A stretch of 63,996 bases of DNA, the filler included, from Reclinomonas americana ATCC 50394 (taxonomy: Eukaryota), in assembly GCA_048213135.1 (NCBI GenBank). It is 17 parts of 17 records of this genome, joined end to end, with 100 filler letters (N's around TTAATTAATTAA, not from the genome) between each part and the next. Parts side by side here need not be neighbours in the genome. Positions count along the whole stretch, not along the records: positions 22,809 to 28,394 come from AFZH01021813.1; 16 more parts are not named here. The stretch is one strand, 5' to 3'. Positions 5,454 to 63,866 of the stretch are shown in pieces (the stretch's first letter is position 1; every line of letters begins with the position of its first letter). The position numbers and the translations under genes are program-made. The notes beneath the pieces are model-generated. The model ran no database searches. It saw only the letters and a program-made list of their open reading frames with translations, and had not been told where the DNA came from.

Positions 5454-10545
<5,092 letters not shown>

Positions 10546-10663: not shown

Positions 10664-22637
<11,974 letters not shown>

Positions 22638-24846: not shown

Positions 24847-27800
24847 TCACCGCTGTAAGACCTTGTACACATCGCGATGATGGCACACATCCTCCTTCTG
24901 CGAGCAATAAAATACGGCCAATCCGTCATCCGGTCGTCTTGCACTGGAGGCCGTCGAGCAGCCACAGTCCTCCCACGAACGCGACTCCACTGTTCCCCCG
25001 CAGGCAATCACCCGATGAGTACGAGCTCACACGCACACTTATTCGAGAAAACATAATCAACGCAACCCCGTTTGCCTCGTCGCAGCAGCATGTCGTATCT
25101 GGCGGCGAGACTGATCACGTCTTCTGAAAGCACCTTGTACGAGCCCTCCTGGAGCACCTTCTTCAGCGCCACGTCCGACACAATCTTGCGCAGCTTCTCT
25201 CGCAGGTTGGGGATTTTCATGCCCTCGGGGATCTGCTTGATCAACTCGACCGCATCCTGCACACATCATCATTTTCACCACCGCATGAGTTACCACTACT
25301 GCGATCATTTTTCTCGTTCAAGTCACGTAACAAACTCGGTGCCGATGTGATCCAACAAGCTGGCAATGTGCTCCGGGTCCTTGACACTCAGCTGGATCAG
25401 GTCCTGCTTCAGACCGACGTCGTTGTGGTCCACCACAAACTCCACCGCCATCCGCACGTTGCGGAGCTTCTCCATGATCAAGTGCAACGCCTGCTTCAGG
25501 TTGCCCATGCGGCCAAGCACATACACCACCTCCTCGTTCCTCCCGTACTGTCTGCGGCGCGAAAGAACGTGAGCAGTGGGGAGGAATAAACCAACCAGGA
25601 TCAACAACGGTATCAACGGAACTCGCAGATGGCCAACGCTCGGTCCAGCATGTAGTGGTCGCTGCGCTCCAAAAACTTGAGAAGCAATTTCTGTTCGCGG
25701 TCTTGCGGAGTATCGTACTTGCAGTACAGCTCAATCTGCATGGGGGTGAACAGACACTCTCTTTTGAGAAACAACAGCATTCCATGGCGAGGACCGGGAG
25801 GAACGCACCTGTCTCTCGTGGAACTGAGCGCCAGCTGCCCTATCCTTCTCAAACAGTGCATGCAAAAAGTAGTGCAGGTTCTCTTCCCGACCAATGGCCT
25901 CCAGTTGTGCCACCACCCGCTCCGGCTGCGACAGCGCATGTCAGGGAACATGCACAAACACACGCAAACACGACACGGCGCGCGACTCAACCTTGATGCG
26001 ATCGGCATTGGCGACAAACAACTCCACGGCCCGCTGCACATTAAATTCGAGCAACTCCTGCAGGCTGTCTTGCACTTCGTGGAACAAGTTGTTTTCGCGA
26101 ATGTAGTCAAAGGCCGACTCCTTGCGGAGCTGTAGATACAGCTGTAGTGTCCGCGTCTGGTTGCCTTGGCGTCGGTACCTGTGGCGTGCCACCGCACGTC
26201 AGTTTCTCTGCTCCACATAATGAAGCACATACAGGCATCGGCGACGCAACAACTCCGCCAAGCCCTCCATCAATAGTTCACGCCCTCGACCTTCCGCAGT
26301 ACGAATGGCGTCCTCAGCGGCCACAATCACCGTGTGCACGTTGTACAGGTCGATTGGCCACGAAAACACGCGTTCCACAAAACGCTCCGGATCCAGAGCG
26401 ATGAAACGCGACAACACCATCTCGTACACCTCGGCCGGCAACGCATCCTCTGGATTCACGTCGAACGGGATGTGCACGGCGATGGCCTGGCATGCCGACG
26501 ACGATGACAAGGTGTGAGACACGTGCTATTCTTTTCCCCCCGACCCCTCTCGTAACGCACCGGTAGTTTGTTCTTCTGGTCAAATGTGTAAATCCACTTC
26601 TCCCACAGCGCCTTGTTGTTGCCAAAAAATCTCTTGCACTGCTCAGCCGCAAAGTCGTAGTCATCTGGGCACGCAAGTCAATCTTTCTTTTTCCACACAT
26701 TTCGCATAGATGAGGACGCAACTTTTCTCCATCAGAGACGTCAGGTAGCTCTCCGCCACCGTCACCAGCGTGTTGGGTGGCAGAATGGCAGCGTTCTGTT
26801 GCGCACACTCCAGAGCCTTGGTGAACCTGCACAAAATAACATGAGGCCACTGCTGACGGAGAAGAAAAAAGGGTACGGACTCAACTCGCTGCGGGTCACC
26901 AGCCACGTAATGTGGTCGTACATGGTCCGATTGCGCACGGCCACAATGTCGTGAGGTGAGACCACATAGTAGGTGGCCACCCCATTGACCACCACCCACT
27001 CCAACGAGTAATCGCGCCAGTCACACTCGTGGTGCCTGTGCAAGTGCGCGCGCGAGATGAGAATCGGTGCGCGGGGACAACGACGACGACGACGACGACA
27101 ACCACTACTCACCCTCGCAGCGGCAACTCGTCCGTCAGATGCTCCTCATTTCTCCTCGAAACGATGCGCACTTCGGGCTTGGCGCCGGTTTGTGCCACGG
27201 GATCGTCAGCCTGCGAGCGAAATCGGCGTCATTGTTCTGCATCGACTGAGATCGTTCATGACAAACACCACCACACGCAACCGGCGCATCGTCTGATCTT
27301 GGGTACGCCACCAGCACCAGCCGGTCGGCGTCGAGTGGTCGGATACCGCATACCGTGTAGTCCGTCATAAACCTGCAAGACACCAATGAGTGAGAATGCT
27401 GGAGGGACAGATAGCACAACAGAGGAGCAACGCAACATGGAGGTGATTTCCATACACCGAGCGGGAAGACCCGAGTCTCGCTGCTCCTGCGTCGTATCCT
27501 GCAAAGAGAAACACGAGCATGGATGAGTAACCTCGGAAGATCGATGGAGAAACACTGACTGGCCGTACCTTGACTTGCGCAATGGTGACCGTGTTGGCCC
27601 AGGCAATCAGCAACCGCACGCCCGTCTCCCACACCAGACTGCACTGGTACAAGTCAGGTCGCAAGTTGCTGGCTGGCCTGTGAATGTTGGTGATCTTTTG
27701 GCCGAGCGACAAATCGTGGACCTACGGGTTTCCACCAGGTTTTCAGCAACGCACCCACCGACTATCTCTCTCACTCTCTCACTCACACTACCCACACACC

Positions 27801-28337
27801 TTGACACCCCGATCATTGGCCCAGGCGATCAGTGGTCCGCACCACGCCACGCGGGTGATGGTGCCCTCGTTCTGATACAACACCGTGTCTTTCGTCGAGA
27901 ACCAACCTGCACAAACACACACGTTCAGCACGGGGAAATGAGAAATGTGGCAAACAAGCCGCACTCACCCTTGGTCGAGAACACCAGCTTCTGCCCCGCT
28001 CCGCCCGACACAAACGGCTTGGAGTTGCGCAGCTTGTACGCCGGATCGAGCGCCACACACCGCAAGCCCTTCTCCTGCTGCGGAAACTCGGCGCTCTCTC
28101 GAGCAAACGTCGTCGTGATCACCACTCGCCCATCATTGGCGCACGTCGCAATCCAGTCACCGCTGTCATCCGTCGACATGTCGTTCACCGGAATGCCCGA
28201 GTGTGGCTTGAATCGTCGCACTTCCTTCCCCTGATGGTCGTACACAATCACCTGTCCGCTGTGCAGTCCAATGGCCTGCAATCATCACACACAGACAGCA
28301 ATGAGCGTGACTGCTGGCCAAGCACAGCCGCGCCTAA

Positions 28338-28394
<57 letters not shown>
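24847..28394 (-). CDS. VPS41: HOPS complex subunit VPS41 (5' end in gap; at least 16 exons; last exon uncertain)
   Basis: IGLHSGQVIVYDHQG, VALDPAY..FVSGG, GWFSTKDTVLYQNEGTITRVAWCGPLIAWANDRGVK, YYVVSPHDIVAV..DHITWL, LWEKWIYTF, VYEMVL, EEVVYVLGRMGNLKQAL and LIKQIPEGMKIPNLREKLRKIVSD. Confidence 0.93.
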
Positions 28395-28494
28395 NNNNNN
28401 NNNNNNNNNNNNNNNNNNNNNNNNNNNNNNNNNNNNNNTTAATTAATTAANNNNNNNNNNNNNNNNNNNNNNNNNNNNNNNNNNNNNNNNNNNN

Positions 28495-54337: not shown

Positions 54338-56582
54338 TTAGATGAATTGCATGGCCACCGTGGCCAGGCCGAGACCAATGATTATTGTTCCGAGAGTATA
54401 CGTCCACGCCATGGGCGGTCGCTTGCTGGGGTCCTTTTGCCTCAGGGCCCGCCAGTGCGCCACCACCGGGAAGGCGTACATGTAGATGAGACCGGAGAAG
54501 GCACCGGTGAACCGCAGAATGGTGCCAATGTACGGGTAAAACACACTGAAGCACGTGGTGGTTGCTGTGTGTGCAACAAGCATGACTACCGTTTAGCGCG
54601 CCGTTCTCCACTCGAAAAAGCAGTGTGCAAGGCACTTACCGAGAACCACGGCGTTCAACAAAATCACCCAGCCCCAGTTCGGCCATGCGTCCTTGAAAAT
54701 GTAGCCGTAGATTTGTGTGCGGATGAGGTAGACCAGCAGCGGGTACACGGTGCCGAGCTGGAAGAACACGCTGAGACGCGCGCACAAAGCCAGCAGGTCG
54801 TCGGCGCCAAACTGCGTCGAAAAGTTCTGCTCAATCGTCTCGCCACGGAAGCCCCACTGCGCAATGGCGCCGGGGATGAAGTAGCAGAGACCCGAGAGCG
54901 CAAAGGCAATCGCCAGATCGCGCCGGTTGTTCTCCGGCCGCGCCGCATTCTTCATGATTGGCAGGATGCCATTGTGGATGAAGAACGACAGACTTAGCAC
55001 ACCGCACAAGTGCGCCCATTGGCCTGCACGACGATATATCAGTGTCGAATGCACCAAGGCGGTGATGGGTGGCGAGGAGACACAACTGTTGTACAACTCG
55101 ATCTCCGGTCGCGGCTTGTTGTCGATCACGTCGCTGGAGTGCATGATGCTCTCCACCACGATGAACGACACCAGCAGGATCACAAAGAGAATGCCGAACG
55201 AGTTGAACTTGACCAGGAACGACACCTTCTTGATGTGCAACAGCGGCACCAGCACCACTAATACCGTGCAGGCGGCAATGGCCGGCGTCCACCAGCCGTC
55301 ATTCGGATCGCTGTGGATGGCGTCGCGGAAGGCCACAATCACCGAGTAGAACGTCTGCGACATGATTACGTGATACACAATGGCTGCCACCACGGAAACA
55401 CACACGACATGACATGAGTCGATGTTGCTTTCCTGAGATGCGAAAGTCAGCGGCGGCACGCAACTGGCACCCAGCAACACCGCCGAGCTCAGCGACAGCG
55501 TGACCACTTGCGTCCATTGGCCAATGTACTCCACGCACACCTCGCTGAAGTCGTGCTTGTTGTCGCCGTGCCGCAGAATCAGCGTGGCCGTGTAGTACGC
55601 GACGGCCAAGATCAGGAAAAAGATGCCAATGCCCATCAACAGACCGCTCTGCGCAAACGCCCACGGCATCGACAGAATGGTGGAGCCGACCATGGTGTTC
55701 CAGATGGAGAAGATGATGGCGATGGAGCCCTGCTTCCCGTCCGTCGACGGCGCCACAAACGGACTCTGCACCAGAAACATCTCCGACGGCAACACATGCG
55801 GCGGTGGTCTCATGATGTGCAGCGGCATGATCAAGCTGTCGCCGTCTTTCGACGCCATACTCGTGTCGGAGTGGAACGCCGCATGCGACGCCAGCTTGCC
55901 ATAGTACTGCGCGCACACCGCCGTGGTGAGAAGAAAAACCACGCGCAGAACAGCGCGGACAACTACCGCGCGCACCTTGACACGATGAAACATCGGCTGC
56001 TTGGAATTCGGCGTGTAAGGCTTGCGCACCACCACATCGTCAACTGTGGCAAAGCGGCCCTGCCCTCGTGCTGCTCTATTCTCCGAGCCCGGTCTGCGCA
56101 TACCCATAAACACTCTCATTCCTCCGATATCACATCCGCACATGCACATGCATTCAAAGACGCAACGGTCCCGCCGAATCCCCATCTCCGCGATCCAGTG
56201 GTGGCGTCACCGACCGCTCATCATCGTCATCGCCGTCGCCCACCTCCAGCGGAGCATGCCCGAGTCCAATCGATCCCGTGCTCCCATACGACCGCTGCCC
56301 ATGCGCAGGAGGCGGTTTCAAGTGATGCTGATGAGGAGCAGCAGCACGTGCCGCACTACCCGCCACATGCTGCTGCTGCTCATCATCATGTGCCAGTGGC
56401 GACGACAACAGACGATCCGTCTCCAACACCTGCAACTCATCACTGTCGTCGAATGCCAGTCTCCGCTCAACATCACCAGCAGTGCCTCCGTCATTGATCG
56501 AGCCTCCAGCACGCATCACAACAAGCGCAGGCGGAGTGTGTCGTGCGGAAGACGACGAGGGCGGCGACGATGGCGACCGCAT
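54338..56582 (-). CDS. SLC38A9: SLC38A9-like lysosomal amino-acid transporter/transceptor
   Basis: SIAIIFSIWNTMVGSTILSMPWAF, LLGATIVYHVIMS, KFNSFGI, GVLSLSFFIHNGILPIMKNAARPENNRRDL, IEQNF and FQLGTVYPLLVYLIR. Confidence 0.9.
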
Positions 56583-61504: not shown

Positions 61505-63866
61505 GCCGCACCTGCAGTCGCCGCCCCCACGCAAGCGTTCTTTGCCAACACGCAACAGCAACAGCAGCAGCTGCTCCAACAGCAACAGCAGCAGCAGCAA
61601 CAGCAACAGATGCTTTTGCATGCGCAATTCATGCAAGTCATGGAGACGAACTCGTCTGCTGCGGCGGCGGCCGCCTCGGCTGCTGCGCCTCTGCAGCATC
61701 AGCAACAGTCAAACATGATGATGTATGACGAGCCGGCTGACATGCTGCCACCGCCGGCGCCCATGGCGTTCAACTATGGAGGCGACCCGCTGCAGGTGGA
61801 GCAGTACGCGGAGGAGATCTTTGCCAGCATGCGCGACCGAGAGGTGTGTGTCCACGTGTATGTGTGTGAGAGAGACGAGGGGCTAGTGAGGATTTTCCCC
61901 TTCACAGGGGTCTGTGAGCGAAAGACCACGGTTTTTGCTGTGAGCGGGCCTCAGTGGGCATTGTGTGTTTTTTGTTTTGTGTGGTATTTTTGTGTTTTTG
62001 TGGACGTGAGCGGTATCTCGTTGGCGCACTCTCCTCCTTTGTTGTTGATGTAGTTGTTGTGCGTGTGTGTGAGTGAGTGACGGAGATGCGGTTGGTGGCA
62101 CGCACCGCACACACTCGCGCGCGCGCGCACACACACGCACTCGCGAACTGTAACTCTGGAACTCCTGCTTTCCTTAACGATTTTGAGGTCGTTGTCGAAA
62201 ATCTCGCAATCACTTTCCTGTCATGCCCCTGTGTTTTTCTACGTTAACGTGTGTGCTTTTGCGACTCTGTGGTACCAATGCGCTCCGCATGCGAGCTTTG
62301 TGATGTAATATTCGCCGTGTCTTTCTTTTTCCTTCTCGCACGAGTTGTCCGCCTCACGATATATCGCACCGTCTCTCTCTCTCTCTCTCTGTGAGCTGTT
62401 GCATGTTGAGCTAGTGCTTCTCTGTTGTCGCGTTTTCTCAATCTCCGTGTGTGTGTGTGTGCGAGTCTTTGCCAAATCAAGCGACTGCGGTTGCAGACTA
62501 TTGTTGGTGCTGACTGGTGCTCTTTTGCGGCAGCTGCGGTACATGCCCAATCGCGACTACATGGCAGCACAGCAAGACATAACGCCGAAGATGCGTGGCA
62601 TCCTGGTCGACTGGCTGGTGGAGGTGGCTTTGGACTATAGGTACGTTTTTTATTGATTCTTATAGACAGAATATTCGCCTTTCCTTTCTCGCTCTCCCCC
62701 CTCTCTCTGTGTGTTGTCTCTCCCTCCTCCACCCCACCCACCCCCCACCGCACACTCTATCGTTCTCTTTGTCTCGCACATATCTCCGCCTTTTGTCCAC
62801 ACGTGTGTTTGTGTGGCCACGTCAACTAAATGTTCGGCACTGTCGCACATGCACATTGACAGAAAAGAGAAAAGATACACACACACACTCTACTCTGTCT
62901 TTCACGTGTGTCTCTTTCTCACTCACTCGCTCTTCTCCTGTTTTTCGACGTTGTCCCTCATTGATTTTCATTCTTTTCCCACGATCTCCAACGCTTGTTG
63001 CCATTTGTGACTAATCATTGCTTTTCCCCCCGCACCTTTCCACGTCACAGCTTGCATCCCGAGACGCTGTACCTCACCATCAACTACATTGACCGCTACC
63101 TGTCCATGGTGGCCGTCAACCGCACTCGCCTCCAGCTGGTCGGCATCACGTGCATGTTTGTCGCAGCGTTGCGTAACCCACTCTCGCTGTTGCCCGTTGT
63201 AGCAGAAGAGCTCATGTTCCTCTGTTTGTGATTGGGTGAGCAGCAAGTACGAGGAGATTACGCCGCCATCAGTGGAGGAGTTTGTCTACATGACCGAGAA
63301 CACGTACAACAAGGAGCAAGTGCTGGCACTGGAGACCTCGGTGCTCACCTCGCTCTCCTTCAACCTCACGGTGGTCAGCCCTTACTCGTACCTGCGCCGC
63401 TTCACTGATGCGGCGGCGCTCGGCGACATGGGTCTGCACAACCGCGCCTTCAAGATGCTGTCAGCTGTTGCGTACTTGGTCGCTGTTTGGTGTCGTCATT
63501 AGCTTTTTCTCAAAAAAACTGTCATTTCTCCCCGTGCAGTACTTTTGCGAGTTGATGTTGCAAGAATACGAAATGATCAAGTGGCCGGCATCACTGGTGG
63601 CCGCCTCGGCGGTGTGCGTGGCGCGCCACACACTTTCGCTGCCCGTGTGGAGCGAGACACTGGAAAGAACGTGTTTCTACACGCCCGCCGACCTGTCGCT
63701 GTGCATGGAGGACATTCTGTTCGTCTACAAGAGAACGCCCAATCCGCGACTGAAGGCGGTGTACGAGAAGTTCTCTCACGCGCGCTACCACCGAGTGTCG
63801 CTGATTGCGCCGCCTGCCGATCTGCCGCTGCTGTTCAAGCACCCGGCGATCCTGGCGCAAACATGA
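61505..63866 (+). CDS. Mitotic A/B-type cyclin, most like cyclin A (5' end in gap)
   Basis: [79 protein letters not shown] and AVYEKFS. Confidence 0.93.

Follow-up and report, generated by a model that had tools for sequence, protein, structure and literature searches.

How does a genome use introns whose 5' splice sites lack the exonic G that its other donors keep? The question is raised by the VPS41 gene of Reclinomonas americana ATCC 50394, which lies on a stretch of 64 kilobases (kb) that was analysed as a whole (the window): eukaryotic DNA of ∼ 56% G+C, dense in short introns. We distinguish ordinary donors, which read GT[AG][ACT]GT, from shifted donors, which read GTT[AG][ACT]GT. A preliminary description of this DNA had observed that shifted donors seldom follow a G in the last exon position (-1), and had proposed that the intron's first G takes the place of that base in pairing with U1 small nuclear RNA (snRNA). 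We find two donor classes in the window that differ by a one-base displacement of both the intronic and the exonic consensus and have identical 3' halves.

Introns were predicted with a purpose-written gene finder that scores codon log-odds, joins exons across GT...AG introns, trains itself and resolves strand conflicts. Its donor model comprises intronic bases only, so that the exon bases under test were left unused. All introns are computational and are based on open frame, codon usage and partial homology. Initially 205 were predicted, of which 180 measure 36–97 nucleotides (nt), mostly 55–86 nt; removal of genes scoring < 20 bits left 203 introns, which were used for the donor-class tests. 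Shifted donors account for 48 of these (24%), or for 62 when near-consensus cores are counted. The architecture is very uniform throughout the window: a typical intron is ∼ 68 nt long (standard deviation 7.5–9.2 nt, depending on donor class), with a CTCAY branch-like motif ∼ 19 nt from its 3' end and GCAG as the main acceptor.

The two classes differ sharply at -1. In the predicted set G precedes 42 of 68 ordinary donors versus 3 of 48 shifted donors (Fisher p = 4.2e-10); in a strict subset, restricted to introns of 45–100 nt with both flanking exons well scored, the counts are 28/38 and 0/26. A control free of gene models, which combined a donor motif, a branch-like motif and a YAG at 50–95 nt and ignored coding potential, gave 30/58 versus 2/27 (p = 7.5e-5). 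The raw heptamer GTTGCGT occurs 46 times on the two strands against ∼ 8 expected (∼ 5.5-fold over-representation) and has G before it in three cases. The test of the -1 base against donor class that had been suggested for the genome, run here window-wide on predicted introns, thus yields clearly unequal frequencies. The contrast is confirmed as real, and it is stronger window-wide than had been stated.

VPS41 encodes a subunit of HOPS, and its coding region and introns are as follows (all coordinates refer to the window).

24847–28275, minus strand: VPS41 coding region, open from the exon start at 28275 to a TGA stop at 24847–24849
27907–27968, minus strand: intron 1, 62 nt, ordinary donor GTGAGT, -1 G
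27722–27799, minus strand: intron 2, 78 nt, ordinary donor GTGTGT, -1 G
27499–27568, minus strand: intron 3, 70 nt with donor 27568 (GTACGG, -1 G), or 61 nt with donor 27559 (GTCAGT, -1 A)
27373–27436, minus strand: intron 4, 64 nt, shifted donor GTTGCGT, -1 T
27211–27281, minus strand: intron 5, 71 nt, shifted donor GTTGCGT, -1 G
27036–27112, minus strand: intron 6, 77 nt, ordinary donor GTGAGT, -1 G
26827–26885, minus strand: intron 7, 59 nt, shifted donor GTTGAGT, -1 A
26665–26722, minus strand: intron 8, 58 nt, shifted donor GTTGCGT, -1 A, next exon begins with A
26487–26560, minus strand: intron 9, 74 nt, ordinary donor GTGCGT, -1 G
26179–26250, minus strand: intron 10, 72 nt, shifted donor GTTGCGT, -1 T
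25926–25991, minus strand: intron 11, 66 nt, shifted donor GTTGAGT, -1 G
25736–25808, minus strand: intron 12, 73 nt, ordinary donor GTGCGT, -1 G
25552–25622, minus strand: intron 13, 71 nt, shifted-type donor GTTCCGT, -1 A
25257–25331, minus strand: intron 14, 75 nt, shifted donor GTTACGT, -1 T
24990–25066, minus strand: intron 15, 77 nt, shifted donor GTTGCGT, -1 G

The exon 27970–28275 translates without a stop, and a run of N lies upstream of it. Single exons match Beta-prop_Vps41 at 61–129, 168–218 and 302–331 and TPR_Vps41 at 58–121, 124–183 and 259–325, collinearly in both cases (Pfam); the expected order, beta-propeller and then the TPR-like/CHCR region, is found with PF23411 and PF23556 lying in order on six exons. 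The exons that flank intron 10 match TPR_Vps41 58–121 and 124–183, contiguously over the junction. Over its whole length the spliced model can be aligned with 12 VPS41 homologues, and no gaps fall at the junctions in conserved blocks; the junction of intron 13 rebuilds the conserved CEQYGRNEEVVYVLGRMGN block of that alignment. Identity is limited: a HMMER library search with a VPS41 exon gave homologues of at most 56% identity, and a 73-residue VPS41 exon found no match in a separate homologous-protein search. The named neighbours are widely scattered (Rigifila, Ichthyophonus, a foraminiferan and a chytrid-like fungus), and the aligned homologues include proteins of Ichthyophonus and Paraphysoderma.

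Two donors of this gene required a choice. For the last intron the finder first chose 25038, with which the homologue alignments reach residue 715; with 25066 they reach residues 741–759, so that homology continues to the C-terminus, and the summed homologue score rises from 4638 to 4678 bits, in favour of the donor given in the preliminary description. Intron 3 has in-frame tandem donors 9 nt apart, 27568 and 27559, with scores of 4682 and 4678 bits respectively; they may be an alternative 5' splice-site pair.

The 15 introns, within 24990–27968, include nine with shifted donors (GTTGCGT five times, GTTGAGT twice, GTTCCGT and GTTACGT once each), and three of these nine follow G (27281, 25991 and 25066). 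The six ordinary donors all follow G, or five of the six if donor 27559 is used; homology cannot separate 27559 from 27568. The counts for this gene given in the preliminary description are reproduced with that one reservation. Taken alone VPS41 offers a weak contrast (Fisher p = 0.028 for 6/6 versus 3/9, p = 0.12 for 5/6 versus 3/9). The statement that the only shifted donors with -1 G are those of VPS41 holds for the window, although among 48 such donors and not the ∼ 30 counted before. The three exceptions (25066, 25991 and 27281, minus strand) amount to 3/9 in VPS41 versus 0/39 elsewhere, a contrast noticed post hoc (Fisher p = 0.005).

What has become of the exon consensus in the shifted class? 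Expected exon bases were computed by combining the phase of each intron with the base frequencies per codon position in the predicted coding sequence. Shifted donors have G at -1 in 3 cases versus 13.3 expected (p = 3e-4), and A is enriched there (17 versus 8.7, p = 0.004), while C tends to be raised at -2 (21 versus 14.8). Weak ordinary donors instead have an excess of A at -2 (37 versus 16.2) and of G at -1 (44 versus 26). The composition at -1 of shifted donors is indistinguishable from that at -2 of 126 non-GTT donors (chi-square p = 0.52) and differs from that at their -1 (p = 7e-10). When positions -3 to -1 of shifted donors are scored with the exon consensus moved by one base, they reach -279 bits, compared with -329 bits in the same register and -300 bits for exon background; the moved mapping is better than the same-register mapping by 50 bits. 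Both results bear out the proposal that the intron's first G occupies the slot of the exonic -1 G, and the class-specific exon consensus, together with the -1 G contingency, agrees with the prediction of two complementary donor classes. The accompanying idea that the last exon base would be 'freed' is contradicted by the depletion of G and the enrichment of A: the need for -1 G is better described as replaced by a -2-like preference than as released.

The displacement extends through the intronic part of the site. The core G[CA]GT lies at +4 to +7 in shifted donors versus +3 to +6 in ordinary ones, and the weaker preferences downstream follow: ordinary donors have G at +7 in 29/59 and T at +8 in 26/59, shifted donors G at +8 in 17/42 and T at +9 in 13/42. 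Since the exon consensus shifts along with the intronic core, the whole recognition block, including its exonic part, has moved one base relative to the cut. Donors that begin GTT without a displaced core have -1 G in 8/15 and A in 0/15, whereas those with near-shifted cores have -1 A in 8/14. Sites of the form G/GTTTGC or G/GTTTGG (the slash marks the cut; for example 30490, 37813, 49307, 29701 and 42977) always follow an exonic G; this group starts with GTT, has no displaced core and behaves like ordinary donors. Intron phases (0/1/2) are even in the shifted class (15/15/17), whereas ordinary introns favour phases 0 and 1 (26/27/15).

The 3' halves do not share in the difference. Mean length is 68.8 nt for shifted and 67.9 nt for ordinary introns, a YTNAY branch-like motif (mostly CTCAC or CTCAT, median 19 nt from the 3' end) is found in 37/42 and 49/59, and the acceptors GCAG and ACAG are common to both classes. 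Because length, branch motif and acceptor agree, we ascribe both classes to one spliceosome. A second spliceosome of the U12 type was considered and rejected: the donor reads GTTGCGT, and shifted and ordinary introns do not differ in branch motif (CTCAY/CTGAY), in its distance from the 3' end or in acceptor.

Duplexes with U1 were computed for the standard 5' end AUACUUACCUG as printed in PMC4856993 (a standard-type U1 5' end is also denoted ACUUACCUG), which may differ from that of this organism. The minimum-energy registers are as follows.

CAG/GUGCGU: -10.7 kcal/mol, canonical register
CCA/GUGCGU: -3.9 kcal/mol, canonical register
CCA/GUUGCGU: -4.0 kcal/mol, shifted register (C9 with +1, U10 with -1, G11 with -2)
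CAG/GUUGCGU: -7.7 kcal/mol, bulged/looped register

On balance we favour a +1 shifted register of U1 pairing, used by one spliceosome that reads two donor dialects, and we regard this joint claim, in which the introns are ordinary U2-type GT-AG introns, as having slightly better than an even chance of being right. In the ordinary dialect the block complementary to U1 would read (A)G/GTG[CA]GT. In the second dialect, which comprises ∼ 24% of the predicted introns, the whole block would lie one base further 3' of the cut, (C)A/G-T-TGCGT. The intron's first G would then fill the slot of the exonic -1 G and face C9 of U1, and the last exon base would fill the ordinary -2 slot and face U10, where A is preferred and G disfavoured. 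The GT at the cut would still be used by later steps (U6/U5) to set the cleavage site. The reader is inferred to be U1, of one standard-like species, and the cut to fall before GT. The joint displacement of exon consensus and core fits a +1 shifted U1 register and speaks against a bulged U.

Several observations weigh against this explanation. The sample is narrow, one 64-kb window of one genome, and the junctions are predictions. The predicted set contains errors: 25 of the 205 initial introns exceed 100 nt and probably skip exons, and one wrong VPS41 donor (25038) was detected. The energetics count against it as well. Mean pairing with standard U1 is weak in shifted donors (-1.8 versus -6.65 kcal/mol in ordinary ones). 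A G at -1 would stabilize shifted donors (-7.7 versus -4.0 kcal/mol), yet it is depleted, and since it is predicted to be favourable but observed to be rare, simple U1 affinity is no explanation. GUUGAGU pairs better than GUUGCGU (-8.4 versus -4.0 kcal/mol) but is rarer. The core also varies less in shifted than in ordinary donors, with G at +4 in 41/42 versus G at +3 in 48/59 and C at +5 in 34/42 versus C at +4 in 24/59 (p = 8e-5); the shifted variants are GTTGCGT (34/42), GTTGAGT (4) and GTTGTGT (4), while ordinary donors have C, A and T in 24, 23 and 12 cases. Standard U1 has pseudouridine 5 opposite this position, which leaves the preferred C mismatched. Thus, the calculation of U1 energy by register that had been proposed stands in part, in that the shifted register is the minimum for CCA/GUUGCGU, and fails in part, in that neither the depletion of G nor the preference for C is predicted. 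Most of the depletion is accounted for by position, because shifted -1 equals ordinary -2, where G is the rarest base as well (17/126). In addition, -1 G may be avoided because it would make the register ambiguous, the CC of U1 sliding on GG. The C preference hints at an unusual U1 5' end.

The strict core and the mismatch of C to pseudouridine 5 keep alive a dedicated reader, that is, a second U1 isoform or a U1 with an altered 5' end (A at 8, G/C at 5/6) complementary to CA/GUUGCGU, which we consider unlikely while taking it seriously. The perfect complement of the shifted consensus does mismatch the standard U1 of PMC4856993 only at positions 5 and 8, and variant U1 snRNAs are described in humans (O'Reilly et al., 2013; PMC3561869), a precedent that could, by hypothesis, let one genome read two donor dialects. 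Poor pairing with standard U1 (the mean of -1.8 kcal/mol above) would no longer be puzzling, and a far more uniform shifted class is what a need for full complementarity would produce. The exon shift is predicted equally (-1 A, -2 C). The depletion of -1 G, by contrast, is not specifically predicted, as a G-U wobble would be possible, and C at +4 is common in ordinary donors (24/59), so a mismatch there is tolerated anyway. Moreover, the U1 5' end is, to our knowledge, almost invariant across eukaryotes. A fuller version has two U1 species and two parallel donor codes, the standard U1 reading AG/GTRNGT and the variant CA/GTTGCGT, with -1 G counter-selected because it would invite unproductive capture by the major U1; we judge this joint claim rather unlikely. 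If true, it would mean a duplicated 5' splice-site recognition inside the major spliceosome.

A cause unrelated to U1, such as a protein-binding or U6-related motif, or a history of intron gain at target sites that exclude G, would cover what U1 energetics leave unexplained, namely the preference for C and the avoidance of G, and the even phases of shifted introns (against 26/27/15 in ordinary ones) would suit it. Its origin in mobile, introner-like copies was looked for and rejected: all-against-all blastn of introns ≤ 100 nt gave best matches of 12–20 nt with E ≥ 0.002, that is, chance similarity and no introner family. Head-to-tail inverted repeats are not enriched either (3/42 shifted versus 4/59 ordinary), the 3' halves are alike in both classes, and the match between shifted -1 and ordinary -2 would have to be coincidence. 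We hold such a cause to be quite improbable. A single shifted-donor intron, at 10990–11060 on the minus strand, starts GTTGCGTGTC and ends ...GACACGCAACACAG; its ends form a perfect 10-nt inverted repeat, a feature that is not general among introns.

In the bulged-U register the pairs C8:G+1 and A7:U+2 are kept, and pairing skips the extra U at +3 (or +2). Human bulge +2/+3 sites prove that this register exists (PMC4856993), and it is the minimum-energy register for CAG/GUUGCGU (-7.7 kcal/mol). It predicts an unchanged exonic AG and a gain from -1 G, but that base is seen in 3/48 versus 13.3 expected, and the same-register mapping that it requires lies 50 bits below the shifted one and 29 bits below exon background. 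As an account of the class it is very unlikely. It may suit the VPS41 donors with -1 G, and these three could use it.

Finally, mispredicted introns, or a TT donor with the 3' cut one base past AG, are extremely unlikely to lie behind the class, for although the junctions are computational, the finder made at least one donor error and a TT...AGN parse preserves the frame, the raw heptamer is over-represented and lacks a preceding G without any gene model, junctions rebuild conserved blocks and Pfam collinearity in VPS41 and in a cyclin gene, intron lengths cluster tightly at 55–86 nt with branch and acceptor motifs, and introns of the form TT...N would not end in a constant base (downstream exons begin with G in 19, T in 13, C in 8 and A in 7 cases). 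All 48 shifted donors begin with GT, and removal of GT...AG restores frame and homology; a cut before GT is the one presumed here. The TT...AGN parse gives the same frame with one base of the messenger RNA changed, which at 26722 substitutes Ser for Asn at a position that is not conserved. The junctions at 63467, 29827, 55464 and 26722, which had been taken to show a cut before GT, do not establish it, as they keep their frame under this parse too.

Other features of the window are recorded here for completeness. Genes named by Pfam matches encode a RabGAP-TBC protein, an ADP/ATP carrier, PTEN, two cyclin-like proteins, an amino-acid transporter, an acyltransferase, GNAT, GST, an NCKAP1-like protein and RPL28e. 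An exon of the ADP/ATP carrier has a best identity of 78% to any protein in the large collection searched. The segment 10664–22637 (minus strand) was predicted as one gene of ∼ 2,455 codons with 60 introns; a few of its exons have weak Pfam matches to beta-helix and Chlamydia-PMP-repeat models, and the prediction may represent a very large surface protein with repeats, or a fusion of several genes. Runs of N occur at 16 places (for example 28395–28494 and 6136–6235), paired as 44 N, 12 bases and 44 N; one lies next to a long (CA)n repeat at 28340–28394, and long predicted introns also carry (GT)n tracts. An Rfam scan of the window returned no family at gathering score; its seven sub-threshold matches include no snRNA and no U11/U12. 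Sub-threshold matches to microRNA-precursor models at 56325–56389 on both strands (best 32 bits, E = 0.011) coincide with a palindromic hairpin in the 5' part of the amino-acid-transporter gene and are probably due to chance. Two loci from a metagenome scan, with 22 residues each at 52%, were judged not to be relatives and were left unused.

How does the shifted class compare with systems already known? U12-type introns, which have expanded in the Physarum lineage, are marked by RTATCCTT at their 5' end and by a conserved TCCTTRAY branch site shortly before the acceptor. Like them, the shifted introns form a second class with a sharp intronic 5' motif, no need for -1 G and a high share beside ordinary introns. 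Unlike them, they have a 5' motif unrelated to RTATCCTT and share branch motif, distance and acceptor with the ordinary introns around them.

The closest parallel is found among human atypical 5' splice sites of shifted register (Roca and Krainer, 2009, cited as ref. 10 in PMC4856993); both this register and the bulge +2/+3 registers are described as proven for human sites in PMC4856993. As in the human shifted register presented there, GU would be kept at the cut, the pairs with U1 would be moved by one and G+1 would face C9; in the human case exon positions -1 and -2 face U10 and G11, a role that the shifted exon positions would take here. The exon of the 'Shifted +1' oligonucleotide in Table 2 of that article ends in CA, like the preferred CA/ of the window. 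The human register, as portrayed in that source, concerns few sites, as against 48/203 predicted introns (24%) with a sharp consensus GTTGCGT. Unlike the human sites, moreover, the predicted core here prefers a C that would face pseudouridine 5. According to PMC4856993, human bulge +2/+3 sites number 68 of 201,541, or 0.03% (Roca et al., 2012), and the validated non-canonical registers together make up ∼ 1.5%. The bulge +2/+3 sites of that article resemble the shifted class in a GUU start followed by a displaced core, G/GUUAAGU being similar to G/GTTGCGT, but they keep and use -1 G, which is depleted to 3/48 here. A literature search that covered few subscription-journal papers returned no description of a GTTGCGT/GUUGCGU donor, only primers, small interfering RNAs and the like, and, within the same coverage, no shifted registers outside humans and no GTT donors in protists.

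If transcripts confirm the +1 shifted register, R. americana would represent a lineage in which this mode of U1 pairing is mainstream, used by ∼ 1 in 4 introns, and not a rare exception. Gene finders with a single donor matrix would mis-score a quarter of the introns in such genomes. For the coding sequence, the demand for G at -1 would have been exchanged for a milder preference for A, with introns evenly spread over the phases. The register between U1 binding and the cut would then be an evolvable parameter, and the organism would offer a natural system for studying how the cleavage site is set independently of U1.

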